The position numbers were made by a program, and so were the translations under genes. The notes under the pieces are model-generated. The model searched no databases. It was not told where the DNA came from and saw only the letters and a program-made list of their open reading frames with translations. DNA of 64,000 nucleotides, from positions 107,394-171,393 of the forward strand of contig JACPAG010000003.1 in assembly GCA_016180945.1 (NCBI GenBank). Direction: 5' to 3'. This document shows, piece by piece, positions 5,128-20,603 of this stretch. Numbering within the stretch: position 1 is the stretch's first letter; the number at the start of each line of letters is the position of its first letter. This DNA is from Candidatus Aenigmatarchaeota archaeon. GTDB lineage: Archaea > Aenigmatarchaeota > Aenigmatarchaeia > GW2011-AR5.

Positions 5128-5167
5128 TTTAAAACTTATACCCCAAAATCCTTTTAACCTTTCTAAG

Positions 5168-5272
5168 CGGGCGCGACGGGATTCGAACCCGCAGCATCTT
5201 GGTCCGAAGCTTCGTTTTCTATTCGCGAAGCGAATAGAATCAAGCGCTCTATCCGGGTTGAGCTACGCGCCC
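5168..5272 (-). tRNA. tRNA-Arg (anticodon TCG) with a ~30-nt intron at non-canonical position 30/31
   Basis: Reverse complement reads GGGCGCG-TA-GCTC-AACCCGGATA-GAGC-G-CTTG[ATTCTATTCGCTTCGCGAATAGAAAACGAA]G-CTTCGGA-CCAAG-ATGCT-GCGGG-TTCGAAT-CCCGT-CGCGCCC-G. The acceptor stem is a perfect 7 bp. A perfect 5-bp anticodon stem forms only after the bracketed insert is removed. No CCA is encoded. Confidence 0.8.
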
Positions 5273-5285
5273 TCACAATATCATA

Positions 5286-5333
5286 ATAATATGGCAATCG
5301 ACTTTTTGTAACAACAAAAAGGGGATTATGTAA
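5286..5333 (+). promoter_or_regulatory. orphan copy of the conserved leader cassette, ending in a start-stop (ATG TAA)
   Basis: AATAATATGGCAATCGAC + hairpin CTTTTTG-TAACAA-CAAAAAG + GGGGATT-ATG-TAA. Same architecture as the cassettes at 2400, 25671 and 27151. Confidence 0.4.
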
Positions 5334-5358
5334 GTAATCTAATTCATTCCAAAGATTT

Positions 5359-6000
5359 ATGTATTTTAGAATAAGTTATAAAGTCATGCTGATGGAGGTC
5401 TACGATACATTATTAAAAGAACACGGTCGCCAGAACTGGTGGCCGTGCAAAACAGGCAATAAGTTCGAGATATGCATAGGCGCCATCCTGACACAGAACA
5501 CGAACTGGGCAAACGCCGAGAAGGCGATAGATAACCTGATAAAAGCCAAGTGCATGGCCCCAAAAAAGATTGCAGAGATGGACGTCAGAAAATTGCAGTC
5601 ATTAATTAGGTCCTCTGGATTCTTCAGGCAGAAAGCCCGGCGATTGAAAGAATTTTCTCATTTTGTCCTTACCTTTGGCAGCGCCAAGCAATTTCTCAAG
5701 AACGTAACAAGAGATGAACTGCTCAATATAAACGGCATAGGCCCTGAAACTGCAGATTCCATCTTACTTTACGCCTGCGGAAAACCCTTTTTCGTTGTTG
5801 ATGCGTATACAAAAAGAATGTTTACGGCGTTGGGCATGGTTGAAGGTACTATGGACTACGAAGGCATGCGGGGTTTTTTTGAAGGGAAAATAATAAAAGA
5901 CATCGCCCTCTACAGGGAATTCCACGCCCTTATAGTGAAGCACTCAAAGACGTGCTGCAAAGGCTTTGTCACGGAGAAATGTATTCTGCGCAATTTATAA
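5359..6000 (+). CDS. endonuclease III-related HhH-GPD family protein
   Basis: GRQNWWP, ILTQNTNW and helix-hairpin-helix INGIGPETADSILLY followed by VVDAYTKR. The true start is probably the ATG at 5386 or 5392. Confidence 0.7.
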   Translation: MYFRISYKVMLMEVYDTLLKEHGRQNWWPCKTGNKFEICIGAILTQNTNWANAEKAIDNLIKAKCMAPKKIAEMDVRKLQSLIRSSGFFRQKARRLKEFSHFVLTFGSAKQFLKNVTRDELLNINGIGPETADSILLYACGKPFFVVDAYTKRMFTALGMVEGTMDYEGMRGFFEGKIIKDIALYREFHALIVKHSKTCCKGFVTEKCILRNL

Positions 6001-6044
6001 ACAGAAATCGACATATAATTATAAATTCATTGGCGGATGGTTTG

Positions 6045-6773
6045 ATGGCGCTTCTCTATATAATCTCAGCAGTAATAGTGGTCAGCCTTATATCGCTTGT
6101 TGGCGCGTTGACAATAGCCGTCAACAAGAGACTTCTCAAAAAAGTGCTGTTCACCTTTGTAAGCTTCGCCGTAGGCACTTTGCTTGGCGTCTCTTTTCTG
6201 GATTTGCTCCCGGAAGCAATGGGGTACGGCATAAAAAGCGTTTTTATATTCCCCCTCTTGGGAATAATATCCTTTTTTATCTTGGAGAAGTTCATATTCT
6301 GGCACCACAGGCACGAAGAAAAAGAAATACACTCGTTTACTTATATGAATCTCATCGGCGACGGCCTGCATAATTTCATAGATGGCGCCGTCATAGCTGC
6401 AAGCTTTTTGCACAGCATCCCGTTAGGCGTAGCGACCACGATAGCTATAGCTTTTCACGAGATTCCGCAGGAGATAGGCGATTTTGGCGTTTTAATTTAC
6501 GGCGGCTTCTCCAGAACAAGAGCGTTATTTTTCAACTTTCTTTCCGCCCTTACGGCGATAATCGGAGCATTTGTAGGATTTCTATTCCTCAGCCATTTCA
6601 ACAATTTGCTGCCTTTTCTCTTGGCATTTACAGCCGGTAATTTCATTTACATCGCCGGCGTGGACCTGCTGCCGGAATTGAGAAAAGAGAGGGGCGCCAG
6701 AACGTCTTTAGTCCAGCTCATTTCTATCATTGTCGGCATCCTTGTCGTGATGCAGATAAATACTGTGGTCTGA
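6045..6773 (+). CDS. ZIP family metal (zinc) transporter
   Basis: Polytopic membrane protein with the HEIPQEIGDFGVLI signature. The ORF-track start 5952 overlaps the previous gene, so Met at 6045 (MALLYII...) is preferred. Confidence 0.8.
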   Translation: MALLYIISAVIVVSLISLVGALTIAVNKRLLKKVLFTFVSFAVGTLLGVSFLDLLPEAMGYGIKSVFIFPLLGIISFFILEKFIFWHHRHEEKEIHSFTYMNLIGDGLHNFIDGAVIAASFLHSIPLGVATTIAIAFHEIPQEIGDFGVLIYGGFSRTRALFFNFLSALTAIIGAFVGFLFLSHFNNLLPFLLAFTAGNFIYIAGVDLLPELRKERGARTSLVQLISIIVGILVVMQINTVV

Positions 6774-6787
6774 AGACCACAGTATTC

Positions 6788-6850
6788 TCGTAGGAATTAA
6801 GAATATTATAAACTACCTGAAGGTCGTAGTGTTAAACTTAATTCCTACGA
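6788..6850 (+). repeat. nested hairpin (14-bp outer stem enclosing an inner hairpin)
   Basis: TCGTAGGAATTAAG (6788-6801) pairs perfectly with CTTAATTCCTACGA (6837-6850). Preceded by the hairpin ACTGTGGTC-TGA-AGACCACAGT that overlaps the ZIP gene stop. Confidence 0.6.
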
Positions 6851-6853
6851 TAA

Positions 6854-7405
6854 TTACGCTATTCCCTGAATAAGCGCCAGAACAAATATCCCGAAAGGAT
6901 ACCCTGCAAGCATGTTGAATACCACGCTTGTCACAGCGCTTAAAATATCCACGGGCTTTGAAATCATGAATTTCTCGGCGAATGCAAAAAAGACGTCCTT
7001 TGCCACGGCCGTTATGAACACCTTTATGAGAAATGAAAACGGCGTCAGGAAGCCAGCCACTAATGCCCCTAATGCATCAACAACATTATAAGGCGAAGGC
7101 ACGAACAACGGCCATTCCGGCTGCGGCAGCGGCAGGAAAAGATACTTGAGACCGTGAAGAATTGGAATCAAAACCAGTAAAAAAAAGAAGGCGAACCACG
7201 GCCCGTACAGCATAGCCAGTATGACGCTCAGGACTGTTGTCAGTTCGACGCCAAAATACCGCACCGCCCCGAAGGCGCTTATTATTGTTTTGTCTATCCA
7301 CAAGAAAACAAAAAGTATCGCCAGCCTGAAATCGAGAACGGCGAAAATAACAAAGCCGGCTATTAAAGTCAGGATAAGGAACGCTACCCCTTTTAAAAAG
7401 TCCAT
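6854..7405 (-). CDS. polytopic membrane protein, unknown function
   Basis: 183 aa, several hydrophobic spans, no recognised motif. Confidence 0.5.
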   Translation of the reverse strand: MDFLKGVAFLILTLIAGFVIFAVLDFRLAILFVFLWIDKTIISAFGAVRYFGVELTTVLSVILAMLYGPWFAFFFLLVLIPILHGLKYLFLPLPQPEWPLFVPSPYNVVDALGALVAGFLTPFSFLIKVFITAVAKDVFFAFAEKFMISKPVDILSAVTSVVFNMLAGYPFGIFVLALIQGIA

Positions 7406-7475
7406 GCAGCAATCACACCTTCTATTATTGCAATACCTGACGCAAGATGAACCCTATTCTTTTTCCTTTGCTTGC

Positions 7476-7494
7476 CGAATGCTCCCTAGGCGAA
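7476..7494 (+). repeat. putative attL core
   Basis: 18/19 identity with 19453-19471. Forms the 5' arm of a 12-bp inverted repeat (CCGAATGCTCCC / GGGAGCATTCGG at 7524-7535). Confidence 0.5.
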
Positions 7495-7619
7495 GCCAAT
7501 CTGAAACGTCATTCCCCGCATTTTGGGAGCATTCGGATTGAATTTATAGCGTGTGATAAGAATTTGAATGCGTAGAGATGTTCGAAGCACTTGATGGAAT
7601 GCAGATAAAAGATATGAAA

Positions 7620-8789
7620 TTATCTGTTAAATTCACTCCAAACATAGTTGCCAGATTTGTCAAAAAGATGGCAGTTCCAGCAGTTATAGTGATTGAATAT
7701 TTCATTCATGATAGATGCAGATATTCTGCTAAAATCTTGTTCCACAGTTGCTAGCGAGAACTCTCTGTCAACTTTTATTATATCTTCATCATTGGGATGT
7801 AACGTAGAAAATGAGTTAGGCAATTTAATAAATGTTCTATTGTAGTTAGTTTTCAAATAAACCTGTATTCTAACATCACCAAAATAATTGTATCGACTTA
7901 GGACATCTGTAGCAAACTGCAAAGTGTGTAATATTTTGATAGCTAATTTTTCATGGATTAGTTTTATACCATTAGCGTGTGCACCAAATTCTTTAGTGTA
8001 CTGTATACAACCATTCCTATGTATTTTAAGAGCCTCGTTGAATTGTACTCCAGCTGGGTGTCTTTTACATGTTATTCCAAATCCAAATGGTTGAGGAAAG
8101 CTTGGTAAATAATCTTTACTGGGAGCTATGAGTGACCCTGAAGGTTTGGGATCTATTAAACTTGGATCTAGCCATGAAAAATCACGAATATCATCAGTAT
8201 TAATTAGTCTTCTATCTAGTATACTCGGTATAACTATTATGTTCCCGAGAATTAGTGCATTTTCTTCTTTCGCTGTAAGATTGTTGATGTACGTTTCTAC
8301 CTCTTCTGCAGTGTAGAACCTCCCCTTATATGCATCAGATATCTCCTGTTCTGTCATTTCAGCAGATTGAAATTCAAACCTTTTATGGAATTTTTTAGTT
8401 CGATTATTATAATGCGGTTTATATTGACTATCTGGGATTTGTAATAAGAGAAATACATTACCATTTATAGCATGATTAACTACGTGAATTCTGGTATGTA
8501 ACCTTGGGGAGACATTCGAAAGTATTAACTGTTCCATTCTTTCCTTGTTCACATTGGATGGGTGAATACCATCTATAGCTACGGGGTATCCACCACGCCC
8601 TGATTCTTGCACGCCAAAAACAACAGTTCCTCCACGTGTATTAGCAAATGCACACACGTCTTTTACAAGATCATCATCGTTAATCGCTTGTTGCTTATAA
8701 TCAAGTATATCACTTTCTGGTATTTTTTGATTAAGAAGAAATTCTATATCATCGTAATTTACATCTGAAAGATTCTTTCTAAATACCAT
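7620..8789 (-). CDS. AlbA_2 (Schlafen-like, divergent AAA-4) domain protein
   Basis: N-terminal block ESDILDYKQQ...VKDVCAFANTRGGTVVFGVQE matches the AlbA_2 putative DNA-binding domain pattern. The C-terminal ~250 aa are unassigned. Confidence 0.6.
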   Translation of the reverse strand: MVFRKNLSDVNYDDIEFLLNQKIPESDILDYKQQAINDDDLVKDVCAFANTRGGTVVFGVQESGRGGYPVAIDGIHPSNVNKERMEQLILSNVSPRLHTRIHVVNHAINGNVFLLLQIPDSQYKPHYNNRTKKFHKRFEFQSAEMTEQEISDAYKGRFYTAEEVETYINNLTAKEENALILGNIIVIPSILDRRLINTDDIRDFSWLDPSLIDPKPSGSLIAPSKDYLPSFPQPFGFGITCKRHPAGVQFNEALKIHRNGCIQYTKEFGAHANGIKLIHEKLAIKILHTLQFATDVLSRYNYFGDVRIQVYLKTNYNRTFIKLPNSFSTLHPNDEDIIKVDREFSLATVEQDFSRISASIMNEIFNHYNCWNCHLFDKSGNYVWSEFNR

Positions 8790-8922
8790 GAGATATTTTG
8801 CTCAGAGAAAACTCTTAAATCATTGGTTGAGCCTTTGGCTCCTTTTTGAAACTTACCAAATGATATGTTTCGGATGCACTCTGAAAAATTGTATATAAAG
8901 GGTAGATTATCGTATATTTGTC

Positions 8923-10539
8923 ATGACAGTGCAAATTTCATTTGAAAAAATTGTTAAAATTTTAAGGCTACACTTCGATGGTGTCCCTCAGGAAAAGATT
9001 GCAAAAATAGTCAAAGTGTCTCAAAGCACAGTCGCCGAAACGATAATCAGGTTTGAAGAAGATGTGAGAAAATATGGAATGAAAGCAGCTTCCGAGAAGT
9101 ACGGAATTTATGACCAAATTGAAGCACTAGCCAGATTAAGTGCCGAATTGAGAAAAAACAAGATTGTAGTGGAAGAAGCAAAAGATGGTTCTAAACTGTT
9201 GGCTGAAATGTCAAAAATAGGAATCGAATCATCAGAAGTAAAAAATTTTTTAATGGCTTGTAAATCTGCCAAAAACAAAGAATTTATGAGGTGTGCCATT
9301 AAACTGACTGATTTACAGATTAGAAATGACATGTCTTATGACGAAGTTGTGACAGACTATCAAAATAAAGCTCTGCAAAAGAAGAATTTAGGTGCGGATA
9401 TTGAAAATTTGAAAGCCGAAAAGGCTCATCTGAACACTGGTATTAAAAAACTAAAGAGTAGTTTTAATAAAAGGCTCACTGAACACAATTTGAGTATTAG
9501 AAAACTCGATTATATTCTAGAAATTATACCGAAGGAAATGAAAAAGGGTGGGCTGAATTCTCAAGAAATACAGGAACTGCTGAGAGCTATACGTGATGCC
9601 ACAGGTCTTTCTGAATACTTGAAACAGGCAAGAAGAAGCAAAATCTATCTTGATTACCAAATCAATGAATCAAGAAATACCGAAAAAAGATTGTATATCG
9701 TCATTGAAAATTTGTATCGAACCAGAAACGAGTATACTGCAGAAATAAGGGAAAAAGAATCTAAGTTGGAAGGTCTTATCGCAAGAATAGAATACGCCAA
9801 CAAAAAACTGGCGCAAATGTCAAAGGCAGAAGAAAGAAAAAAAGAAAACATCATGGTAAGTAAAGCTATTCTGTCTTTCCTAGCGAGCAAAGATTCTCAG
9901 GCATGGCATATAGATGATATAATTACAACCCTGCAGGCTGCAAAATATTCGAAGAACATAAAAATGGAAGGACAATCGGTAGAGCTAATAGAATCTGCCA
10001 GAATAAAACTTGCCAGAATTATACTTCCGCTTGTTGAAAATGAACTGGTAAGCAAATCCATCTTGAATTCAAAAGAAACTGAAATCGAAACGCTAAAACA
10101 AGATATAGCCAGCAATTACGTTCTCAGGTCAGAAGTTGATGATGTTAAATCAGAGTTGGAGAAGATTAAAGAACATTCAGATAAGATCGAAGAGTCGTCA
10201 AAGAGCACTTACAAGCTTTACGAAGATAGCATAAATAAATTCACAGAATTGAATAATCAAGTAAGCGGAACGATAACGAAGTTAAAAGAGGACACTTCAA
10301 AAATTGAGTCGGAACGGGATGAATTACAAAGAAAGCTGGCTGAATTGGCTAATTCTACGGAGCAACCGCTTTTATGGTACAAGGCAAATATCAAACCTGA
10401 AGAACTTGCTTATGAGAATCTAGAAAAACTTGAGAATATAATCAAGGATGTTAGGCAAAAGAAACTTCCAACAAAAGTCCTGTCGGATGCTCTTGACCTA
10501 TTTGCAAAGCTCTATCTAAAAAATAGACTAGAAAGGTAA
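8923..10539 (+). CDS. HTH plus long coiled-coil protein
   Basis: N-terminal HTH-like QEKIAKIVKVSQSTVAETIIRF, followed by ~450 aa of heptad-like K/E/L-rich sequence. Confidence 0.5.
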   Translation: MTVQISFEKIVKILRLHFDGVPQEKIAKIVKVSQSTVAETIIRFEEDVRKYGMKAASEKYGIYDQIEALARLSAELRKNKIVVEEAKDGSKLLAEMSKIGIESSEVKNFLMACKSAKNKEFMRCAIKLTDLQIRNDMSYDEVVTDYQNKALQKKNLGADIENLKAEKAHLNTGIKKLKSSFNKRLTEHNLSIRKLDYILEIIPKEMKKGGLNSQEIQELLRAIRDATGLSEYLKQARRSKIYLDYQINESRNTEKRLYIVIENLYRTRNEYTAEIREKESKLEGLIARIEYANKKLAQMSKAEERKKENIMVSKAILSFLASKDSQAWHIDDIITTLQAAKYSKNIKMEGQSVELIESARIKLARIILPLVENELVSKSILNSKETEIETLKQDIASNYVLRSEVDDVKSELEKIKEHSDKIEESSKSTYKLYEDSINKFTELNNQVSGTITKLKEDTSKIESERDELQRKLAELANSTEQPLLWYKANIKPEELAYENLEKLENIIKDVRQKKLPTKVLSDALDLFAKLYLKNRLER

Positions 10540-10544
10540 TAAAA

Positions 10545-10640
10545 AGTAAAAAATATCGAGTGTATCGTCCAATATCGAATGAATAGGCGTCTATGCCGTA
10601 TATCTGGTGTATCGAGTATATCGAGTGTTGCATCAAGCGA
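10545..10640. repeat. iteron-like short direct repeats (candidate element origin or partition site)
   Basis: ATCGAGT at 10555, 10611 and 10620, plus variants ATCGAAT (10574) and ATCGTCC (10564). They lie at the start of a ~450-bp AT-rich non-coding gap. Confidence 0.35.
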
Positions 10641-10994
10641 ACTACTAAGAAGACGGTATTTAGAGTCTCTTAGGTGCTAATGTAGTGCCCTTATAGCTTG
10701 CTATCATAAGCCATCCTAATTACTCATCAATAATCATCACAGTTTATCAACATTTATAAGATTTACGTGAGTTTAGAAAGAAAACAGCTTGTATTCATTG
10801 TTTGGAAGCAAAGACTGCATTAAAAGAGTGCGTTACATAAAATATTGATGAATACTAAATCAAAGAAGAAACTCGAAAGAGAAGAAAGAGTAGAAGAATT
10901 TAATAAGTACCCAGAAAATTTTAATATACGACATAGACGTGATTCCAGATTACTTTGGATTCAGAGAAAAAGGAAAAAGCAATAATTACTGGCA

Positions 10995-12131
10995 TTATAT
11001 CCTTTGTTCTAGAAAATCCAATATTTTGTCCAGCTCCAAATTTGTAATATCCCTAACAAGCTTGGTAATCGAATGCGAATTTGACTTGGTAATCTCTAGC
11101 AGTTCGGGTACGGTCAGATTGCAAGCCAGTTGGTGCTTCACAGAAATCTCAATCCAGCCCAAGAGCTGGCTTCTCAGTTCTTCGTTATAGCAGTGCCTAG
11201 TCTGCTCGAATCCTTTTATAGTAAGTTTGCCATCGGGCTCAAATGATATCAGCCCTTTATTTCCGTCAGTAAAATCTCTGTGCGGTACTATGTCAAAACC
11301 TAAGTCAAATAGTCTAGTTCCCAAGTATTTATCTATCTGGGTATATCTTGCAGAAGTTTTCGCCTCAAAAACTATTGTTTCGTTATTACCATCAACTTTT
11401 TTCGTGTCCTTTACTTTTCCAAATATTTTCAACAATTGGAGCTCCCTAAGAAACCCTCCAGAAGAAATAAACTTTCTCTCTACGAGCTTGTTTATTAATT
11501 CTACATGTTTATAGGCGGCGGCATCTGGAACACCCTTGGTGCTCCACTGTATCTGATTTTCCACAAGATAACCGAGATTCTTGAACCAGTTGCATGCTAC
11601 AAATTCGCAGAACGGCTCCATACTTCCTCCTTTTGCACTTACACTGATAGGGGAGAATATAAAATTTTGAATTTCTTTGCCAGAGTCTTTAATTTTCCTT
11701 ATTACTTCGCTCAATTCCTTTCTGGTTTTTCTTTCATCATTGTAAACAAAAAGCGGAACTATAAATTTCGTACCGTGAAATAAGTCTGGATATGATTCTG
11801 AAAGTTGCAAAGCTGTGGAACCCATCAGAGGCGTTAATATGCTGGGCACCAGAACTTCATAATTTCTGAGCAGATAATCTTTTTCCAGATATTTTTCTGT
11901 ATACCTGAAATCCCGTACATAAAATCCTGTTTTTTCTGTGGAAGCTGGTGTAAGTTTTTTCTCCTCATCCAGCATGACAAAATCTCCAGTACAGTCCATA
12001 AACAAAAAAGCAGTTCTGACATCAGTTTTGATAATTTGTCCTAAGAACTCGTCATTCACCATTTCAAATTGGTCTGGAAAATTGGTCGTTAGTATTTTTA
12101 TGAACTCTTCTTTGCCAATATTCGGAATCAC
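10995..12131 (-). CDS. hypothetical protein, possible PD-(D/E)xK nuclease fold
   Basis: 378 aa. EFVACNWF...GVPDAAAYK...IVFEAKTS resembles an E...PD...ExK arrangement, but the spacer is long, so the call is weak. Confidence 0.35.
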   Translation of the reverse strand: MIPNIGKEEFIKILTTNFPDQFEMVNDEFLGQIIKTDVRTAFLFMDCTGDFVMLDEEKKLTPASTEKTGFYVRDFRYTEKYLEKDYLLRNYEVLVPSILTPLMGSTALQLSESYPDLFHGTKFIVPLFVYNDERKTRKELSEVIRKIKDSGKEIQNFIFSPISVSAKGGSMEPFCEFVACNWFKNLGYLVENQIQWSTKGVPDAAAYKHVELINKLVERKFISSGGFLRELQLLKIFGKVKDTKKVDGNNETIVFEAKTSARYTQIDKYLGTRLFDLGFDIVPHRDFTDGNKGLISFEPDGKLTIKGFEQTRHCYNEELRSQLLGWIEISVKHQLACNLTVPELLEITKSNSHSITKLVRDITNLELDKILDFLEQRI

Positions 12132-12146
12132 GATGTATCACCTAAA

Positions 12147-12365
12147 TCACCCCAAGCTCCTGTTCAACTGCTCTAGTGCGCCTTTAATGTTCATTATGTC
12201 GCTGGTAACATTCTGCTGAATCTTATTGGCGTCTACATCACTTGTAACTTTGACAGGCTGCGTAACTTTTGTCGGGTAAACGCTGACATAAGCAAATGCA
12301 AGCAATAGGACTATGATTATCCCAATCAAAATGTACATCGTCTTCTTGTCTTTCTTTTTAGCCAC
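12147..12365 (-). CDS. small single-pass membrane protein
   Basis: 72 aa. Basic N-terminus, then the hydrophobic span MYILIGIIIVLLLAFAYV. Overlaps the end of the upstream LamG gene. Confidence 0.5.
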   Translation of the reverse strand: MAKKKDKKTMYILIGIIIVLLLAFAYVSVYPTKVTQPVKVTSDVDANKIQQNVTSDIMNIKGALEQLNRSLG

Positions 12366-13674
12366 CTAAAATCACCCTAACAATAGCATCTACTACGAGG
12401 AGAATATTGCCAATCCGATTCTTTATTTCAATTATGTCAAGCTGTGTTGGTGCATCCTTTACAGAATTTATGTAATTCTCTGTCTGTGTAATATTGGCTA
12501 GTCCGTAGCCAAAGTGCATCATAACAGCAGACCATTTTCCTGCATTGTTTGTATCGTTTATAGAATCGTAATAATTGAACAGACCTGCCGCAGAATTGTT
12601 TAGAGAGACAAAAGACGTTTTCAACGTTTCCATCTGAATCAATATTCCAAGAAGAACTGTCTTATCTACTAACTTTGCTCCGCATTGGCAGATATTGGTT
12701 ATGCATCTTTCAGTATCGTTTCCTATTATTTGTGGGCATGTTATTTTTCCTGCACACTCAGAATCTAGAGCGCACGACAGATTTTGTGTTGCAGGCACTG
12801 TAGTTGTTGTAGTAGAAGGCGGAACTGTCGTTGAGGATGAAGCTATAGTAGTAGGTATAGTTTGAGGAATTGTTGTCGTTGTGGTTTGATTCGTCTGATT
12901 CAGTGATATTGTTGTTGTAGTTGCTGTAGTAACTGTTATAGTCGTGGTAGTTTGATTTGTCTGGTTTGTTGGTATTGTTGTTGTAGTAGTTTGATTAACA
13001 GGAATTGTAGTTGTGGTAGTTGTTGGTGACGGCATTGCAGTAGTAATTCGCACTTCATCAATTATACCGCCAAAAGCCACATCAGAATAGCCATCGTTTC
13101 CTATAATAAGCGGAGCTGTAACTGCTTTGATATTTCCCAAATTCAGGCTTTTTGTCGAGTCTAGAACATCATTTATGTAGAACTTTACTGTCGAACCGTC
13201 ATAAGTGGCTGCTATATGAGTCCATGCATTTAACGGCACAGTGCCATCGCTCCTAGCTGCATTTCCAGAAGATGGGCTATTTATGTAAAGGGCTAGTCCA
13301 GCTCCTTCAAAAGTAAGTAAATACGAAAGCGAGCCAGAACCGTATCTGCCAATAATTCTGCCATATTTAGTCGGATAAACCCACGCTTCTAAAGTTATCT
13401 GGTTAGTTATTCCTTCCGTGCTGCTGGACGATACAACCACAGCATCATTAACGCCGTCAAAGCTCAATGCATTGCCATACTTTCCTGTCGTCCATGTAGC
13501 CCCATCGACTGTTCCGTTAAACCTGCCAGTCTCATCTTTGGCAAGACTACCAGAGCCTTCGTTAAAGTGCCATAAGGCTACTGTGTTGCTATTTACAGTG
13601 TATTCTTGGGCATAGGAGAGGGTAGAAAATAATGTAAAGGTTAGGATGAGAAGCAGAATAGGTGTATGTTTCAT
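12358..13674 (-). CDS. secreted LamG (concanavalin-A-like lectin) domain protein with Thr-rich linker
   Basis: Signal peptide MKHTPILLLILTFTLFSTLSYAQE from the ATG at 13674. LamG_3-like blocks LWHFNEGSG...GNALSFDG...LEAWVYP...WTHIAATYDG...FGGIIDEVRI. Then a T-rich linker and a Cys-containing C-terminal domain. Confidence 0.75.
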   Translation of the reverse strand: MKHTPILLLILTFTLFSTLSYAQEYTVNSNTVALWHFNEGSGSLAKDETGRFNGTVDGATWTTGKYGNALSFDGVNDAVVVSSSSTEGITNQITLEAWVYPTKYGRIIGRYGSGSLSYLLTFEGAGLALYINSPSSGNAARSDGTVPLNAWTHIAATYDGSTVKFYINDVLDSTKSLNLGNIKAVTAPLIIGNDGYSDVAFGGIIDEVRITTAMPSPTTTTTTIPVNQTTTTTIPTNQTNQTTTTITVTTATTTTISLNQTNQTTTTTIPQTIPTTIASSSTTVPPSTTTTTVPATQNLSCALDSECAGKITCPQIIGNDTERCITNICQCGAKLVDKTVLLGILIQMETLKTSFVSLNNSAAGLFNYYDSINDTNNAGKWSAVMMHFGYGLANITQTENYINSVKDAPTQLDIIEIKNRIGNILLVVDAIVRVILGG

Positions 13675-13789
13675 ATAAAATTCATTATTCTCCACTCCTT
13701 TTAAATCTATTTCTTTCGGATAGTTTATCAACTGATAGATTAGTATATCGCTTAAAAGGAGTTTCCCTATATTTGAATAGGGAATACTC

Positions 13790-14107
13790 ATGCGATATGC
13801 ACCAAAGAAGTGGAGTTCGGTAGCGATACTTATGCGTGACTCAACTTATTCTGTGCTCGAGACACTTGTAGAGAAGCCGAAAGGCTGGAAAGAGTTAAAA
13901 GACGCTACTGGCTTGACAGATGGTGGTTTGCAAAAGGTTCTGAAGGAATTAGTAAAAAGTAATGTCGTGGAGGAGGTACTTGTCGAGAATCCATATGGTC
14001 TCAAGCAGAAAAAGTATGTCATTACTTCGAAAGCGAAGAAAGAGAGGATATTCGAAAAGGCGAAGGAATTGAAAGAGGCACTTGAAAGGTTATCAAAAAA
14101 AGGTTAA
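13790..14107 (+). CDS. winged-HTH transcriptional regulator (ArsR/MarR-like)
   Basis: 105 aa. YSVLETLVEKPKGWKELKDATGLTDGGLQKVLKELVKSNVVEE is a typical wHTH pattern. Confidence 0.6.
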   Translation: MRYAPKKWSSVAILMRDSTYSVLETLVEKPKGWKELKDATGLTDGGLQKVLKELVKSNVVEEVLVENPYGLKQKKYVITSKAKKERIFEKAKELKEALERLSKKG

Positions 14108-14111
14108 AATA

Positions 14112-15122
14112 ATGGAAGCTACAAGTTTGGTCGAGAATAAAGAAAAATTACTTGCGTTTTTAATCAATAATTCTGAAGACATATTTAAAAAAATTTATGA
14201 GTTAAAGAAAAATAACATAGGTAGTATTCTATCAGAATTTTATATTTCTAGAGGATTCTGGGAAGACTATAGAAATTTTGAAAAGGTTTTACTTTTCATT
14301 AAAAGCAGCAGAGAAAAAGATTTATTGGAAAAACTGGAAAATAACTTATTACCCAATTATGTTAAAGAATTAATTGAATATTTTGAACTATTCAAAGAAG
14401 GTTGTAAAAAATATCCAAATGTGGAAAAATTAATACTATTCGAATGTAAAGTGAATGTGGACAAAGGATTTGAAAATCTTATAAACTTTTTAACAGAAAA
14501 TCCTAAATTTCAAAAATTTCTTCCAGAAACAAAATTAATCCAATGTTATTTCTTTTCAAAGAAAACTTTTATCCTCAAAAATTGGTTTGGATTTTATTAT
14601 AAGGAAGAATTACAAGAAGATGTTGCTAGATACATGATGAGAATTTTTGATTATTATTTTTCATCTTTAGACAACATTTTCTTTTTATACGCTAAAATTT
14701 TTAAAATTCCAACTGTTGAGCATACAATAAAAATTATTGAAAAAGATTTCATTCCTAAAAATTATGATATTTTGCCAAAAAGAGAGCAAATTTTATATTC
14801 TGAATGCTTGAATAGTATGAAATCAGGTTTAAGTAATTCTACGGTTTTGCTTAGTGGAGTTATTATTGAATCTTTACTTAAGAAAATACATAAAGAAGTA
14901 GAAAGACAGGAATTTAAGAGTAATTTTGAAGATTTAATTAAATGGATGAAAAACAAACTTGGAGTGAAAACAGACCCATTTGCTGACGGTTTAAGAAAAA
15001 TTAATAACTATGCAAAACATGATGTAGATTTTTTGGCTGGTGTTGATGAAGCTAAACTCTCTCTATTAACATTAAAGTATGTTGTTGAGAATCTAAAATC
15101 ATATTTAGATGAATTGGAATGA
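14112..15122 (+). CDS. protein with C-terminal DUF4145-type HEPN-like domain
   Basis: C-terminal ~110 aa read ...LLSGVIIESLLKKI...GLRKINNYAKHD...EAKLSLLTLKYVVENL. The R-x3-N-x3-H spacing is as in the DUF4145/Abi-type HEPN motif. Start taken at Met 14112, after the upstream stop. Confidence 0.5.
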   Translation: MEATSLVENKEKLLAFLINNSEDIFKKIYELKKNNIGSILSEFYISRGFWEDYRNFEKVLLFIKSSREKDLLEKLENNLLPNYVKELIEYFELFKEGCKKYPNVEKLILFECKVNVDKGFENLINFLTENPKFQKFLPETKLIQCYFFSKKTFILKNWFGFYYKEELQEDVARYMMRIFDYYFSSLDNIFFLYAKIFKIPTVEHTIKIIEKDFIPKNYDILPKREQILYSECLNSMKSGLSNSTVLLSGVIIESLLKKIHKEVERQEFKSNFEDLIKWMKNKLGVKTDPFADGLRKINNYAKHDVDFLAGVDEAKLSLLTLKYVVENLKSYLDELE

Positions 15123-15178
15123 ATTAAGTTGAACTGTGGCGGTAAATAATTAGTGCTGGTCATCCGCTCTCTGTAAAA

Positions 15179-15547
15179 TTATAAGTTTCTAATTTCTTCT
15201 ACTGTCATATAACCTTCTGTTAGAGTCTTTTCTGGCATAAAGTATGAGAGTCTCTTAGGGTCTAAACAATAACCCTTGTACCATGCATAATGCACTTTCC
15301 TTGTAACGTCTTTTATCTTTGATGGGTTTGAACCAGAAACAGTACCGACTGCAATCATTTCCTCATCTGGTGTTTTTTGCCTGTCTTGTTTAACAATTTT
15401 TGAATACAGCTTCTTTGCGATAGCCTGTAATTCATTCTTCATTTGTTGTGGATTATCCTTACTTACATCGTACCATTTTGTAACTTCAAAAGATTCATTA
15501 GGAGAATTTATCACAACAATCAATTGAATTAAATTAATCTTACTCAT
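15179..15547 (-). CDS. hypothetical protein
   Basis: 122-aa ORF with no recognised motif. Divergent from the 15604 gene. Confidence 0.45.
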   Translation of the reverse strand: MSKINLIQLIVVINSPNESFEVTKWYDVSKDNPQQMKNELQAIAKKLYSKIVKQDRQKTPDEEMIAVGTVSGSNPSKIKDVTRKVHYAWYKGYCLDPKRLSYFMPEKTLTEGYMTVEEIRNL

Positions 15548-15603
15548 TTAATCACCTATAATTAAACATTACTTTAGCATACATTTTAATATTCTTGAAA
15601 TAG

Positions 15604-16746
15604 ATGATCCTTATGCAAGACGAGAAACTCAAAGAACGTATATCTTTATTAATGCGATTCTTCTGGTTAGATGACTTATTCAAAATTGGAAAAGAGTTAA
15701 ATCTACTATTCTTTGAAAAGATACAAAATTATTGGGAAATGAATCAGTATCAAGCTGCTACTGAGATAGCAAGAAACATTGACGATACTAAACTGCTTGA
15801 ACTTACAAAGAAGTATATTCCTAAGTATGGATTACAATTAGGCGGATTTCATGGAAAATACTATACTACAACAGAGACTGGTGAAATTAGATTTGAAGAC
15901 TCAAGTAACCTCATAAAGACAAATGTTCAGAAAGCTCTTAAAAAATGGGGAGACAGAGCATACGGGTTACTTCAAGCAATGGTAAATAAAAATGGTCATG
16001 TTACATACTTTGACCTTATAGATGAAATTGAAAAGGTATTAGGCTACGAATTTATTCCATCTTATCTTCTTTCAAGATTTGCACCATTAAACCTTGTGTT
16101 CAAAACAGGTAGCAATAAATACCCAGACTGGACAATGCCAAGTGAGATAATTCCAATAGTTCAAGAAGAATTAAGGAATTTCAAACGTCCTGCACGTCGA
16201 TACCTCACTAAAGAAACACCTGATATACATTTACTAAAAATTGAAAAAGAAACTAGTAGTATTGTTGATAAAATTGTTGAATTTAGACGAAATATCAATC
16301 TTCTCTTTGAACAAAAATTTAAGACTAAGTTTTTTAAACAAAATGAAATGGCAATTAATGATATACGCAAACCGTGTAGCAACGAAGAAGAGTTTAATAA
16401 TAGAATTATGAGCCTCGCACTTTTAATAGACGAAATAGAAACTGAAAGTATTTTGAAGCTCGTTACAAGTAAGCCGCAATATGGTTCTATAAATATACTT
16501 GAGAGTTTTCTAAATGAGAAATATCCTAATTACAATAAAACTATTATCAAAAATTTGAGATTTATAATGACTCTAAGAAGTAAAAAGTATCCAGTTCATC
16601 GTGATGATGTGGCTTTGATAGATGCATTGGGCTATTTTGGTTTTACAGAATTGCCTCCTGACTGGCAAGAATTATGGGAAGCTTGTCTAAAAAGATACTT
16701 GGATAGTATCCAAGGTCTAATATCCATTCTTATAGCAACTAGTTGA
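15604..16746 (+). CDS. hypothetical protein with central wHTH-like segment and C-terminal HEPN-like R-x6-H motif
   Basis: 380 aa. C-terminal helical region contains NLRFIMTLRSKKYPVHRDD (R-x6-H). Lies 22 nt upstream of the cyclase gene on the same strand. Confidence 0.4.
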   Translation: MILMQDEKLKERISLLMRFFWLDDLFKIGKELNLLFFEKIQNYWEMNQYQAATEIARNIDDTKLLELTKKYIPKYGLQLGGFHGKYYTTTETGEIRFEDSSNLIKTNVQKALKKWGDRAYGLLQAMVNKNGHVTYFDLIDEIEKVLGYEFIPSYLLSRFAPLNLVFKTGSNKYPDWTMPSEIIPIVQEELRNFKRPARRYLTKETPDIHLLKIEKETSSIVDKIVEFRRNINLLFEQKFKTKFFKQNEMAINDIRKPCSNEEEFNNRIMSLALLIDEIETESILKLVTSKPQYGSINILESFLNEKYPNYNKTIIKNLRFIMTLRSKKYPVHRDDVALIDALGYFGFTELPPDWQELWEACLKRYLDSIQGLISILIATS

Positions 16747-16786
16747 TAGACATCAAAATAAAAAACTTTTGTATAATTATATTACT

Positions 16787-17737
16787 ATGCCTACCAAAGA
16801 CAATATATTCAGAATGGATTTTATACAGGAAATAGAAAGTGTGGATGAAGAAAAAAGAACATTCAGAGCAAGACTTATACCTAATCCAGAAAGATATGAA
16901 GTCAAGGAAATAAATGGAGAAAAAGGTTATTATGATAAATTTGACAACTTTTTCATATCTCTTAAAGAAATAGAAAAGGGGCTTAAGAAAAGTATAGGAG
17001 CACCGATTTTTTATACCCCACCTAAAATAAGAGATAGTTTGGAGTATACAAAATCACGAATACCAGAAATAAAAAGGCATTTTGAAGAAGACACAGAAGA
17101 TTACGTATTCTCTGATGCTTCAGAAGAATTCCTAGAAACTTTGCCGCAAGGTGAAAAAACATTTGTAATTTTGAATATAGATTTAATGGGTTCTACAAAA
17201 ATGAGCCAAGAACTTGAAAGTGAAGAGAATGCAAAAGTTATTTCATTATTCTCAAAAGAAATGGCACTCCTTGTTCATGCATTTAATGGTTATGTGTTGA
17301 AGTATTTAGGTGATGGACTTATAGCTTATTTTCCAGAACCAAATTTTAATGGAATGAATGATAATGCACTAGACTGTGCATCTTCAATGAAATTGTTAAT
17401 ACTTTGCGGAATAAATCCTGTGTTAAAAGAAAAGGGTCTGCTAGAGTTGAGTTTTAGAATAGGACTTGATTCTGGCGAAGCAACGGTAGTTATAGTTGGT
17501 GCTGACAGAATCAAAAAACATAAAGATTTAATAGGAGAAACTATAAATTTGGCGTCTAAAATTCAGAGTATAGCTGAGAAAAATCAAATACTAATTGGTG
17601 ATGCTACTGCAAGAAATGTTCATACTTTTTGGAGAAAATTACTTATAAAAAAAGAGCTTCTTCCAAATTGGGAGTATACAGTTAGAAATACAAAGGAATT
17701 CTATCCACTATATTTTTTGAAAGAACCTAACATATAA
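16787..17737 (+). CDS. class III nucleotidyl (adenylate/guanylate-type) cyclase domain protein with unknown N-terminal domain
   Basis: Cyclase homology blocks FVILNIDLMGSTKMS, GYVLKYLGDGLIAYFPEP, SFRIGLDSGEATVVIVG and DLIGETINLASKIQSIAEKNQILIGD. Both metal-binding Asp positions are present. The ORF track starts at TTG 16769; the first ATG is at 16787. Confidence 0.75.
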   Translation: MPTKDNIFRMDFIQEIESVDEEKRTFRARLIPNPERYEVKEINGEKGYYDKFDNFFISLKEIEKGLKKSIGAPIFYTPPKIRDSLEYTKSRIPEIKRHFEEDTEDYVFSDASEEFLETLPQGEKTFVILNIDLMGSTKMSQELESEENAKVISLFSKEMALLVHAFNGYVLKYLGDGLIAYFPEPNFNGMNDNALDCASSMKLLILCGINPVLKEKGLLELSFRIGLDSGEATVVIVGADRIKKHKDLIGETINLASKIQSIAEKNQILIGDATARNVHTFWRKLLIKKELLPNWEYTVRNTKEFYPLYFLKEPNI

Positions 17738-17845
17738 GAATTTTATTTAAGCTTTCTTTATCCTTGTCACAAGATTAATTTACACTTGTAGTAAGAATTA
17801 CAGAGAAAATAAGAAGAATGTAAAAATAATAAAACTAACGCTTTT

Positions 17846-18007
17846 CTACTTCCTTATGAACGCCATCGACCCAACAGCCACTGCAAATCCGCCTGCAAAC
17901 ATGGCGTCCAGTACAGGATACATGGCTGGGCTTGCTGTCAAGTTCAGGAAGAAACCCGACAAAGCTGCCACAATGCCTATAGACCCGACTGTTCTCCAGA
18001 AATCCAT
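17846..18007 (-). CDS. 53-aa predicted two-TM protein (below the ORF-track cutoff)
   Basis: Manual translation: MDFWRTVGSIGIVAALSGFFLNLTASPAMYPVLDAMFAGGFAVAVGSMAFIRK. Lies downstream of the integrase on the same strand and is convergent with the cyclase. Confidence 0.4.
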   Translation of the reverse strand: MDFWRTVGSIGIVAALSGFFLNLTASPAMYPVLDAMFAGGFAVAVGSMAFIRK

Positions 18008-18082
18008 TTTTACCACCTCTTTTGTTTATAGCCCTCTACATATAGGGTATGTAAAAAAGAAAATAATGACAGTGCTTTCACC

Positions 18083-19399
18083 TCATTTTTCCGCCTTTAA
18101 CATCTCAATCCAGTTCTTCATTCTTTCAAATTTCTCTAAAAGTTCCTCTTCATCGGCTGGATTCCTGCCGCCGCTTATGGTAACTTTTGCCTCTTTCATG
18201 CCCGTCTTTTTCAGCTTTTCGTTAGCCACGTAATCGAAAAATCTCTTCTGGTAATTTCTGTCCTGTTTCAGCATAAAATCGCCCATCGTTTCTTTCATTT
18301 CTTTGATGGCGAGCTCCCTCTCTCTTTTCTTCTCGTCCAGTATGAGACCACAGCGACCACAGAAATCTACAGTGGCAGGGTTCTGCATCCTGCATCTGAT
18401 ACATACTTTCGGTTTTAATTTTGACTTTTCTTTTTCCGTTTCCTCTTTCTTTATGCCGTATACGTTGAGCAGCGCATTATCAACGTCCCTGCCTGACAGA
18501 TGAACGTAAGTGGCTGCCTGACTTGAACGCTGCGTCCATCCGAATATTTCCTTAAGCTGTGCTTCTGTCAGCTTGTTCGCCAGCTCTGTTGCTCTGGAAT
18601 GCCTGAACAGATGCGGGTGTATCTTCTTTTTTATCCCAGCCTTCTCGCCTAGATTTTTCAGCATCATGGCTATTGCGCCGTAGCTCATCATTTTGTTCTT
18701 GTTCTTTGTGCCGATGCCCAGCCACAGAAAAGCGTCTGGATTGTCTTTCTCTGGATGGATGCTGACCCATGACCACAAAGAAGGAGATGATGCGATTAAT
18801 CTAACCCTTCTGTCGCCTGTCTTTCCGCTGACATGGATAACTGCCCCGTATTCGTCTGATTCGAGATTTTTCAATTTCAGCGTTGCCATCTCTCCGATTC
18901 TGCAACCAGATTCGTACAAACAGAAAACCAGTGCTTTATCTCTGGGATGGTCTGCGACATTAACCATCGTTATTATTTCGTCCTGCGTGAGCATGTCGTC
19001 TGGAAGCTTGTGGCTGTTGTTTCTTAACGTGGCTTTCAGCCATCTGACTTCTGGCGGATATTCATCGCTTTTTCTCAGCCATCTGTAAAATCTTTTGCAG
19101 ATTACACGGTAATCTTTTTTCGTGTAGTCCGCAAGAGGAGAAGTTTCTATAGTCCTGAAAATTCTTTCAATGCCTTCCCTGTCAGCATCTTCAAAATCCT
19201 TTTTGACAAGCTCGGAAATTTTTTTCAGGTGAGAAATATATTTTATGACTCTTGCCCTGCTGAGACCTTCAGAAAAAAGATAATCGCAGAATTTCAGGAT
19301 TGTTTTTTTATTCTGTTCCGAAGTTTTAAAATTGCCGATTCTTTTCAGCGTGGATTTCAGTCCCTGCTCGTAATTATGGAAATCCACTTTCACGCCCAT
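18083..19399 (-). CDS. tyrosine recombinase / integrase (XerC/D-like) with C-terminal zinc-ribbon extension
   Basis: Catalytic blocks SGCRIGEMATLK (Arg), HPHLFRHSRATELA (H-x-x-R) and AATYVHL (Tyr). Extra C-terminal CIRCRMQNPATVDFCGRCG, then a helical tail. Confidence 0.85.
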   Translation of the reverse strand: MGVKVDFHNYEQGLKSTLKRIGNFKTSEQNKKTILKFCDYLFSEGLSRARVIKYISHLKKISELVKKDFEDADREGIERIFRTIETSPLADYTKKDYRVICKRFYRWLRKSDEYPPEVRWLKATLRNNSHKLPDDMLTQDEIITMVNVADHPRDKALVFCLYESGCRIGEMATLKLKNLESDEYGAVIHVSGKTGDRRVRLIASSPSLWSWVSIHPEKDNPDAFLWLGIGTKNKNKMMSYGAIAMMLKNLGEKAGIKKKIHPHLFRHSRATELANKLTEAQLKEIFGWTQRSSQAATYVHLSGRDVDNALLNVYGIKKEETEKEKSKLKPKVCIRCRMQNPATVDFCGRCGLILDEKKRERELAIKEMKETMGDFMLKQDRNYQKRFFDYVANEKLKKTGMKEAKVTISGGRNPADEEELLEKFERMKNWIEMLKAEK

Positions 19400-19452
19400 A
19401 GATTATTTATGCCCCGCCTAGTATTTAAAGGCGGAGCATCTCGATTGCATTT

Positions 19453-19471
19453 GAATGCTCCCTAGGGGAAG
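19453..19471 (+). repeat. putative attR core
   Basis: 18/19 identity with 7476-7494. Preceded by the hairpin GGAGCAT...ATGCTCC. Confidence 0.5.
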
Positions 19472-19625
19472 TTCCCAGCTTTTCCGCCAGCGCTTTTCAG
19501 CAGAAAAGGGCTGTTTTGAACCCCTGTTTCAAGCTGCTTCCGTTTCTTTCCAGGGTTTCTTCCTAAGAAAGCCTCGAGAAGCTCGCATCCTTGACCGGAC
19601 TAGACGAAGGGAGCTTTCTAATTAA

Positions 19626-19754
19626 TACCACACATACCACCAATCTTTAGATGGTGGTAGTATCAGTGGTATGTGGAGTGTAAAAAACACTGCTATAGTA
19701 TCAGTGGCATCAGATCTAATAGATGTCACTGCATTTATGCAGTGGTTTTTCACA
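19626..19754 (+). repeat. family-B nested-hairpin element, copy 1
   Basis: Upstream hairpin CCACATACC...GGTATGTGG, then outer stem TGTAAAAAACACTGC (19679-19693) / GCAGTGGTTTTTCACA (19739-19754) enclosing an inner hairpin. The same frame occurs at 25210-25287. Confidence 0.6.
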
Positions 19755-19804: not shown

Positions 19805-20440
19805 ATGGCACCCGGTTCAAAAATAACACAGCAAGAGGTATGGGGCTCAATAGCCGAGCCATGGCACCGGGCAAGAACAAGAATGTATGACGACCTGAAG
19901 GAGTTTCTAAGAAACAACACCGGCAGAAATTTTGTGCTGGATTTGGGCTGCGGCTCCGGCCGCAGTTTTATGGCAGGCAAAAAATACGTAGGCGTGGATT
20001 TTTCTGAAAATATGTTAAGGCATGCGAAACAGAATGCAGAGAAAAATGGAATAGAAGCTCACTTGGTTAAGGCTGATGTATGCCACCTGCCTTTCAAATC
20101 AAATTCATTCAATACGGCCCTGCTTGTTGCCACCCTCCATTCAATGGAAGACCGTGCCATGTGCTTGGAAGAAATGAAAAGGGTTATGGAAAAAGGCAGC
20201 GAAGCCTTCGTAACCGTCTGGAACAAAAACCAGCCAAGATTTTTAATGTCAAAAAAAGAAAGCTATGTGCCTTGGAAAGTAAGCGGCAAGATTTATTGGA
20301 GATATTATTATCTTTTTGCCGAAGGGGAATTAAGAAAACTTCTCTCCGCCTACTTTAACGTCAAAAAAATATACGGCGGCAGGGAGAGGGTTTTAAAGTT
20401 ATTCCCGAAGAATATTATCGCTATCGTGAAGAAGATGTGA
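19805..20440 (+). CDS. class I SAM-dependent methyltransferase
   Basis: Motif I VLDLGCGSGR, then a post-I acidic residue and Methyltransf_11-like layout. Confidence 0.8.
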   Translation: MAPGSKITQQEVWGSIAEPWHRARTRMYDDLKEFLRNNTGRNFVLDLGCGSGRSFMAGKKYVGVDFSENMLRHAKQNAEKNGIEAHLVKADVCHLPFKSNSFNTALLVATLHSMEDRAMCLEEMKRVMEKGSEAFVTVWNKNQPRFLMSKKESYVPWKVSGKIYWRYYYLFAEGELRKLLSAYFNVKKIYGGRERVLKLFPKNIIAIVKKM

Positions 20441-20475
20441 TTTTCCAGTTTTTTAGCCTATATTTAGAGATTCAT

Positions 20476-20578
20476 GCGGGGGTACCCAAGTGGCCAAAGG
20501 GGCTAGATATCTGAAAATAGGCCATGCTTAGGACCTAGTGGCTTAGTGCCTTCGCAGGTTCGAATCCTGCCTCCCGCA
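20476..20578 (+). tRNA. tRNA-Leu (anticodon TAG) with a 19-nt intron at position 30/31
   Basis: GCGGGGG-TA-CCC-AAGTGGCCAAA-GGG-G-CTAG[ATATCTGAAAATAGGCCAT]G-CTTAGGA-CCTAG-TGGCTTAGTGCCTTC-GCAGG-TTCGAAT-CCTGC-CTCCCGC-A. The long variable arm indicates a class II tRNA. Confidence 0.8.
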
Positions 20579-20603
20579 TTTTTAAGACTTATGGATAAAA
20601 TAG

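Follow-up and report, generated by a model that had tools for sequence, protein, structure and literature searches.

Integrated elements that use tRNA genes as insertion sites belong to textbook biology, and in other archaeal phyla tRNA-targeting elements with non-partitioning (pNOB8-type) integrases are well known, including the so-called cryptic integrated elements. In the Aenigmatarchaeota, which are tiny symbiotic archaea, few such elements have, to our knowledge, been mapped to base level. Here we analysed a 64,000-nt stretch (hereafter, the window, to which coordinates refer unless another contig is named) of contig JACPAG010000003.1 (assembly GCA_016180945.1, positions 107,394 to 171,393, forward strand) from a Candidatus Aenigmatarchaeota archaeon (DPANN), whose genome of 987,615 bp (0.99 Mb) is 84% complete. 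The window carries an integrated element of about 12 kb, bounded by direct repeats and bearing a terminal tyrosine integrase gene (Table 1). We conclude, with a probability of roughly 85%, that this adenine-thymine-rich (AT-rich) block is an integrative mobile element of the DPANN archaeon that targets the tRNA-Glu(CUC) gene by means of its own tyrosine integrase and represents the cryptic, defence-island type. Support for reading the block as an integrated element comes from the statistics of the repeats, the base composition, the lack of host repeats, gene-order comparison with related genera and the way in which homologous integrases behave. The element itself is unsurprising, since integration at tRNA genes is so familiar: what is unusual is the host, not the kind of mobile element.

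Like the archaeal cryptic integrated elements, the block has short repeats derived from a tRNA 3′ end, an intact integrase gene beside the tRNA gene, AT-rich variable cargo and a patchy distribution. It differs from them in its DPANN host with a genome of about 1 Mb, in a target gene with two introns, in the zinc ribbon of its integrase, and in that the homology of its attachment (att) sites reaches 3–4 nt into a T-loop intron. Integrated elements are also on record for Asgard archaea (PMC11529989). A further group for comparison is the Thalassapleoviridae, pleolipovirus-like proviruses of Archaeoglobi of 13–18 kb which include AvPV1, ThalV2 (BK065158) and GacPV1 (BK065156); AvPV1 is flanked by 27-nt repeats, one within tRNA-Gly and the other beside the integrase gene (PMC10919331). 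The element studied here is of comparable size, and its integrase is 39% identical over 84% of the length to those of ThalV2 and GacPV1 and ends in the same zinc-ribbon tail, but searches at the sequence level revealed no VP3-like, VP4-like or rolling-circle Rep genes in it, and its cargo is of a defence/regulatory type. The haloarchaeal pleolipovirus SNJ2 resides as a provirus in tRNA-Met with a 14-bp att core and has small co-transcribed open reading frames (ORFs) after the integrase gene (PMC5861418). A tRNA-gene site with a 14-nt core and a small ORF after the integrase gene are likewise present here, although the ORF encodes a predicted two-helix membrane protein and is kept in one relative only. 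Finally, the Pycsar systems combine a PycC cyclase with an effector activated by a cyclic nucleoside monophosphate (cNMP); a protein of our element matches the PycC models and lies on a mobile island, but this cyclase has its own conserved N-terminal domain, and no adjacent effector was recognised.

The direct repeats, GAATGCTCCCTAGGCGAAG on the left and GAATGCTCCCTAGGGGAAG on the right, are identical in 18 of 19 positions and follow the consensus GAATGCTCCCTAGG, then C or G, then GAAG. With up to three mismatches allowed, the 19-mer has two matches in the window, against 0.03 expected from shuffled sequences, and the exact 14-nt core occurs at these two sites only in the whole genome of 987,615 bp. 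For comparison, we took 1500 random pairs of 400-nt windows lying 12 kb apart in the same genome and scored the best 19-nt ungapped match in each; an 18/19 match was found in a single pair (p ~7e-4). The repeats thus exceed chance expectation. The initial annotation of this DNA had placed them at 7476–7494 and 19453–19471; the repeat is real and its right copy was located correctly, whereas the left copy was set one base off. Its statement that both copies take part in inverted repeats holds as well, GAATGCTCCC (7477–7486) being complementary to GGGAGCATTC (7525–7534), and GGAGCAT (19433–19439) to ATGCTCC (19455–19461).

The composition of the block differs from that of its surroundings. A two-step guanine-cytosine (GC) model set the boundaries at 7540 and 17860, with a GC content of 0.340 inside and 0.452 outside, and in 2-kb windows from 8 to 18 kb the tetranucleotide distance from the genome mean exceeded the 95th percentile, reaching the 100th percentile at 14–16 kb. 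The compositional break is therefore real, and the left repeat lies at it, the modelled border being 7540. Moreover, the element has no dispersed-repeat matches to the rest of the genome, while four host segments (three of equal size and one of 7.5 kb) have 23–84, which bears out the earlier remark that the host hairpin elements are absent from the block.

The 3′ end of a tRNA gene lies within the right repeat. Default ARAGORN and Rfam (E ≤ 5) detected no tRNA in the att regions, and ARAGORN run with anticodon introns also missed the gene; it escapes these programs because it has two introns. The gene was revealed when BLAST searches with the right flank as query, run on this genome and those of relatives, matched several tRNA loci, and manual splicing then yielded a 75-mer which ARAGORN identifies as tRNA-Glu(ctc). 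The spliced tRNA forms a perfect cloverleaf: all 7 bp of the acceptor stem are paired, the T-stem is AGGGG/CCCCU, the anticodon loop reads UUCUCGA, and the D-arm is the same as in tRNA-Glu(UUC) of this genome. When the 159-nt precursor is folded without constraints, both the acceptor stem and the T-stem appear, and intron 2 protrudes from the T-loop as a hairpin; we read its flanks UUC/GAA with the 3-nt bulges AAA and CUU as a possible relaxed bulge-helix-bulge (BHB) shape. The initial annotation, according to which integration was not into a tRNA gene, was thus wrong in this respect: the right repeat comprises the last 13 nt of tRNA-Glu(CUC) together with 3 nt of the intron and 3 nt of the trailer, and the tRNA gene remains intact with the repeat lying over its 3′ end. 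As judged from these features, the two-intron tRNA-Glu(CUC) is well supported but not proven as the target. The single mismatch between the repeats corresponds to tRNA position 62, where C62 of the right site (attR) pairs with G52 while the G of the left site (attL) would break this pair. Such a pattern is expected if the crossover took place within the 14 identical bases, so that the tRNA-body side of attR comes from the host and the matching side of attL from the element. The C at 7491 in attL would accordingly derive from the element.

The integrase gene is intact and reads inward, as had been noted initially. The protein matches Pfam Phage_integrase (PF00589, 2e-19), and in an alignment with five homologues it keeps all catalytic residues, namely R (in CRIGE), K (GKTG), HxxR (HLFRH), W (GW) and Y (TYVHL). 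We considered and rejected two other assignments. The element is not of the SSV type, since the integrase ORF is not split and the att core lies outside the gene, 54 nt upstream of its start codon. Nor is the protein the chromosomal XerA, as its score is 113 bits against a cut-off of 220 (NCBIfam NF040815); of 25 relatives, only 4 have a true XerA, and several whose genomes are nearly complete are devoid of any tyrosine recombinase. Homologues with 30–50% identity occur in 22 of 41 genomes, patchily, on different contigs and with up to eight matches per genome. At every locus with a complete context, the integrase gene stands at the margin of an AT-rich block and immediately follows a tRNA gene that contains an intron (tRNA-Tyr, -Ser, -Met or -Arg, or, in one case, a tRNA 3′ end that had escaped detection); the far side has 12–29-nt repeats of the tRNA 3′ end. 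One of these elements, about 14.9 kb long and residing at tRNA-Tyr in genome G009, carries HsdM, HsdS and HsdR of a type I restriction-modification (R-M) system, a GmrSD-like protein and a PD-(D/E)XK nuclease. A comparison of the element proteins with archaeal virus and plasmid databases, proposed at the outset, showed that the nearest integrases in the phage collection are those of ThalV2 and GacPV1, while related plasmid-borne integrases (37% identity) are found in haloarchaea. By this similarity, the zinc-ribbon tyrosine integrase family is one that archaeal pleomorphic viruses also use.

The genus is represented among the reference genomes by this species alone, and for this reason the unoccupied site was sought by gene order in related genera. 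Four genomes (G009, G001, G004 and G010) have a homologue of the left-flank gene near tRNA-Glu(CUC), and no element separates the two. G009 and G001 share the order ZIP transporter, tRNA-Glu(CUC), membrane protein and methyltransferase, all on one strand, and in G004 the tRNA gene is on the opposite strand. The G010 genome has both the membrane protein gene and tRNA-Glu(CUC) in reversed orientation, which is precisely that of the window, with nothing else in the 195 nt between them. Unoccupied counterparts of the site thus exist in related genomes at the level of gene order, and the arrangement in these relatives implies that the window results from inversion of a two-gene block plus the insertion of 12 kb between the membrane protein gene and the tRNA 3′ end. 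Virtual excision would leave these two genes about 74 nt apart. As to the inversion itself, the tRNA-Glu(CUC)/membrane-protein block is inverted here and in G010 relative to G009 and G001, and only the tRNA is reversed in G004 (loci L021, L023, L025 and L026).

Taken together, the data are consistent with the following course of integration. The integrase would recombine the attP site of the element with the 3′ end of the chromosomal tRNA-Glu(CUC) gene serving as attB, the crossover falling within GAATGCTCCCTAGG, i.e., tRNA positions 63–73 plus three trailer bases. The outcome would be an intact tRNA gene next to the integrase at attR and, at attL on the far side, a displaced copy of its end that has one mismatch. 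The integrase gene would stay whole, as it does with pNOB8-type and bacterial integrases, and would be read from its own promoter, for which the TATA-like box between the att site and the start codon is the candidate. The virtual attB reads, from the left flank, ...CTTTGCTTGCC + GAATGCTCCCTAGGGGAAG + TTCCCAGC..., and the virtual attP, a 197-nt sequence obtained by joining the element-side halves with a script, has the junction ...GATTGCATTT + GAATGCTCCCTAGGCGAAG + CCAATCTG... Its arms are enriched in copies of the core half-site: ATGCTCC occurs three times (once directly, in the core, and twice inverted) against 0.017 expected per 200 nt, and GAATGC four times against 0.12. These arm repeats, to which ATTTGAATGC may be added, are likely to serve as integrase-binding sites. 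The element may still be able to excise.

Contigs crossing the junctions were also looked for in sequencing data. Exact-protein look-ups of the left-flank membrane protein and the integrase retrieved ten Logan contigs from six runs of one study, SRR12113383, -384, -385, -422, -424 and -431, which are 99.96–100% identical to the window over the aligned lengths and together cover both junctions; analogous look-ups of the methyltransferase (with two start choices) and the Schlafen protein returned no Logan record. One of the contigs (L048, SRR12113431) breaks off precisely at 7490, where the 14-nt core has its last base. Such an end fits a branch of the assembly graph between occupied and empty sites, which we take as a hint only.

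Several observations weigh against our interpretation. Neither attB nor attP was present in the ten Logan contigs, each of which represents attL, attR or host sequence only. Both junctions were likewise missing from the Joint Genome Institute (JGI) metagenome contigs, among which this sample is probably not represented: there, the virtual attB pattern had no match, and the bare 19-mer gave four unrelated chance matches of other GC content with no similarity in the flanks. No excisionase was recognised among the element proteins. The unoccupied site is visible at the level of gene order only. The intron borders of the tRNA were placed by hand so as to give a cloverleaf, its splicing being read from the sequence. 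The defence interpretation is built on domain matches only, and no recognisable Pycsar effector lies beside the cyclase gene in the window, in the related element L062 or in the Bathyarchaeia chromosome L066. The right compositional boundary, at about 17860, is 1.6 kb inside the right repeat, so that the initial claim of repeats lying exactly at the compositional boundaries holds for the left one and fails for the right one. This offset arises because the integrase gene and the small ORF next to it (17846–19399) have a host-like GC content of 0.43. Related elements likewise have a higher GC content in the integrase gene than in the cargo, and this common pattern accounts for the position of the right border.

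As for the cargo, searches with Pfam, PHROGs, NCBIfam and PADLOC recognised no virion, replication, partition or conjugation genes, in agreement with the earlier remark that no capsid or replication protein could be seen. The Schlafen/AlbA_2 gene has only weak homologues, in 3 of 40 relatives. The 538-aa protein, beyond its N-terminal helix-turn-helix (HTH), looks from its sequence like a long coiled coil; neither it nor the 378-aa protein (p378) has a match in 50,697 phage records. For p378 a single homologue was found, in which the motif G-x-PD ... E-A-K-T-S is kept; the motif resembles the core of PD-(D/E)xK nucleases, making p378 a putative nuclease. Its structure model was unusable (predicted local distance difference test (pLDDT) score 39.5, alignment of two sequences), and p378 has no PDB match. 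LamG proteins about 31% identical to that of the element are present in the chromosomes of relatives. The 105-aa winged-helix protein has a 60% identical homologue inside an integrase-bounded element of genome G016, and may be a regulator or a recombination directionality factor. Members of the p380 family, 47–80% identical, are spread over Bathyarchaeia, Thermoplasmata, ANME-1, Methanoperedens, Thaumarchaeota, Altiarchaeales and Asgard archaea in variable contexts. The p380 gene is paired with p122 in two of seven loci, a divergent pairing with a gene for a 120-aa protein is seen in Bathyarchaeia and Thaumarchaeota, and some members of the family are fused to a Rab-like GTPase or other N-terminal parts. 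The model of p380 (pLDDT 88.8) has a central winged helix and its PDB matches are winged helix-turn-helix (wHTH) structures only, while its profile found no match among PDB sequences. A 72-aa ORF similar to the 56-aa one after the integrase gene was found in G009 only.

The cyclase of the element is a PycC-type protein, being matched by 13 PADLOC PycC models (best 9.6e-23) and by Pfam Guanylate_cyc (1e-13). We nevertheless rejected its assignment to a Pycsar system, as an adjacent effector (a cNMP-binding domain fused to transmembrane segments, a TIR domain or another killing module) is lacking: here it adjoins the gene of the wHTH protein p380 and a 56-aa ORF, in L062 its neighbours are a small ORF and the gene of a secreted protein, and in L066 it is surrounded by housekeeping genes. 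A Pycsar operon made up of p380 and the cyclase was rejected, too, because p380 is unlinked to the cyclase elsewhere. L062 (GCA_016193585.1, JACPRW010000002.1, positions 1–7500) is a second Aenigmarchaeota element, with a GC content of 0.31–0.43 in a host of about 0.55; beside it are a tRNA gene with an intron and three ~60-nt repeats in tandem, and its integrase is 25% identical to that of the window. The cyclase genes of the two elements correspond to each other (69% amino acid and 73.6% nucleotide identity), and both lie beside an integrase gene. The cyclase is thus a mobile cargo gene. As a secondary reading, this effector-less PycC-like cyclase, common to unrelated integrase elements, may form part of an undescribed archaeal signalling defence.

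The initial annotation had left open whether the block is plasmid-like, provirus-like or a defence island. This choice is now narrowed, though not closed, in that the annotatable cargo and the related R-M-bearing element point to a defence-type island. The block lacks recognisable virion, replication and conjugation genes, and it encodes a Schlafen/AlbA_2 protein, a PycC-like cyclase, a putative PD-(D/E)xK nuclease, DNA-binding proteins and a surface protein; hence we regard it as a cryptic integrated element that is probably of the defence-island type. We think it quite unlikely that it is instead the provirus of a DPANN virus not yet described, such as an enveloped pleomorphic one, whose structural proteins (LamG and the small membrane proteins) are too divergent to be recognised. 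The kinship of the integrase with those of ThalV2 and GacPV1 would fit a provirus, as would the 477-aa secreted protein and the two small membrane proteins, and those proviruses of Archaeoglobi, which measure 13–16 kb, also sit in tRNA genes (PMC10919331). However, in a tblastn comparison of all element proteins (E ≤ 1) the integrase was the only one in common with ThalV2 and GacPV1; no VP4-like, VP3-like, Rep or NTPase match was obtained with Pfam, PHROGs and NCBIfam, and LamG, the sole structural match in PHROGs, has its relatives in the chromosomes of related genera. The failure of the 538-aa and 378-aa proteins to match any phage record also speaks against a provirus, and so does the related integrase-bounded island of G009, where a type I R-M system takes the place of virion genes. 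An integrated plasmid whose replication initiator has escaped recognition is unlikely as well. Three sizeable orphan or near-orphan proteins (of 538, 378 and 346 aa) could include such an initiator, and the related integrases of haloarchaeal plasmids agree with this origin; but no library revealed a Rep, primase, helicase, partition or conjugation domain in any element protein, and no circular contig or attP junction turned up in the Logan and JGI contigs.

It is very improbable that the block is an old, immobile island acquired horizontally, or an assembly artefact, with a chance 19-mer and a domesticated or host recombinase. The host-like GC content of the integrase gene, the finding of nothing but integrated forms in the Logan contigs, and the fact that the integrase is the only tyrosine recombinase found in the 84%-complete genome would all suit an old island. 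Yet the repeat, besides being improbable by chance, coincides with a tRNA 3′ end just as in the homologous elements, the score of the integrase is far below the XerA cut-off while XerA is missing from most relatives, and the higher GC content of the integrase gene than of the cargo recurs in related elements. The independent Logan contigs from six runs, nearly or fully identical to the window across both junctions, argue against misassembly, and the absence of any host repeat inside the element argues for its recent arrival.

Table 1. Coordinates of the element, its attachment sites, target gene, cargo and flanks in the window (further copies of the host module are given by contig)
Feature	Position	Strand	Description and basis
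Integrated element	7496-19471		11,976 bp including one core copy; GC 0.34 for 7540-17860; from repeats, composition and synteny
attL core, GAATGCTCCCTAGGCGAAG	7477-7495	+	Minus strand: displaced, imperfect copy of the tRNA-Glu 3′ end
GGGAGCATTC	7525-7534	+	Matches the first 10 nt of the core perfectly in inverted orientation; candidate integrase-binding site
ATTTGAATGC	7562-7571	+	Direct copy of 10 nt (19449-19458) spanning the left edge of the attR core; candidate arm site
TATA-like box, TTTAAATA	19422-19429	-	23-30 nt upstream of the integrase ATG; putative, read from the sequence
GGAGCAT	19433-19439	+	Inverted core half-site in the attP arm; candidate integrase-binding site
attR core, GAATGCTCCCTAGGGGAAG	19453-19471	+	Minus strand: CUU (end of intron 2), tRNA positions 61-73, trailer UUC
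tRNA-Glu(CUC), two introns	19456-19614	-	Spliced cloverleaf, D-arm identity, fold, syntenic place in relatives
tRNA-Glu(CUC) exons	19614-19575, 19535-19514, 19468-19456	-	
Intron 1	19574-19536	-	39 nt; canonical position 37/38
Intron 2	19513-19469	-	45 nt; T-loop, 60/61
Tyrosine integrase	18083-19399	-	438 aa, intact; C-terminal CxxC...CxxC zinc ribbon and helical tail
56-aa ORF	17846-18016	-	Two hydrophobic stretches, predicted membrane helices; directly downstream of integrase; host-like GC
Schlafen/AlbA_2 N-terminal domain protein	7620-8789	-	389 aa; Pfam PF04326, 7e-20
538-aa protein	8923-10539	+	N-terminal HTH; weak HTH_7 and IS630-type HTH matches
p378, near-orphan	10995-12131	-	378 aa; conserved G-x-PD ... 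E-A-K-T-S motif
Secreted LamG-domain protein, then 72-aa membrane protein	12147-13791	-	477 aa with Thr-rich linker; Pfam Laminin_G_3, 2e-25
Winged-helix protein	13790-14107	+	105 aa; weak wHTH matches
p346, orphan	14082-15122	+	346 aa; one weak relative among 1.84 billion representatives
p122	15179-15547	-	122 aa; divergent pair with p380
p380	15604-16746	+	380 aa; divergent pair with p122
PycC-like class III nucleotidyl cyclase	16769-17737	+	322 aa; conserved 130-aa N-terminal domain
Left host flank, membrane protein	6854-7405	-	183 aa
Right host flank, methyltransferase-like	19805-20440	+	Label from the initial annotation; separated from the element by the tRNA gene and a host hairpin repeat (about 19640-19700)
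Further copies of the ACAGCCCTTTTCTNCTGAAAAGCGCTGGCGGAAAA module	C4:81954-81989, C8:188488-188508, C7:145978-146012, C7:37785-37819, C5:56558-56592		

Intron 2 of the target gene copies a module, ACAGCCCTTTTCTNCTGAAAAGCGCTGGCGGAAAA, that is dispersed in the host genome and also found in the anticodon-region introns of two other tRNA genes and beside the ATG/GGGGA starts of protein genes. Its presence both in tRNA introns and by protein start regions suggests that the hairpin mini-inserts of the host may be substrates of the splicing endonuclease. A bolder version, in which the module is a mobile BHB-type intron cut by the tRNA-splicing endonuclease wherever it lies and attP was shaped on an intron-bearing allele, seems to us possible but rather doubtful. 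An insert at the same T-loop position was observed in the tRNA-Trp(CCA) gene at about 77300–77800 of contig C7, which ARAGORN does not call; it is shorter than the ~270-nt anticodon intron of this gene and has the same flanks (UUCAAAA / AAGCCC...GGAAAUU / CCUCC). At 54712–54867 of the same contig, ARAGORN in intron mode calls a tRNA-Glu(ctc) whose fold is poor, its D stem having 3 bp and its anticodon stem containing a mismatch; this is probably a different tRNA interrupted by a non-canonical intron. A further intron-mode call, tRNA-Pro(agg) at 20475–20579 of the window, immediately follows the methyltransferase-like gene; since relatives carry tRNA-Leu(tag) in this place, an intron-bearing tRNA-Leu may have been misassigned. 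The intron-mode calls in this genome need to be checked by hand.

In this work, we provide the exact borders, the target and the integrase family of a mobile element of Aenigmatarchaeota. Since multi-intron tRNA genes, including those with an intron in the T-loop, escape the standard finders, att sites in these archaea can be mis-scored as not lying in a tRNA gene. Individual cargo genes, the cyclase being one example, pass between elements whose integrases are unrelated, and 12-kb islands with defence-type cargo enter even the 1-Mb genomes of DPANN archaea.

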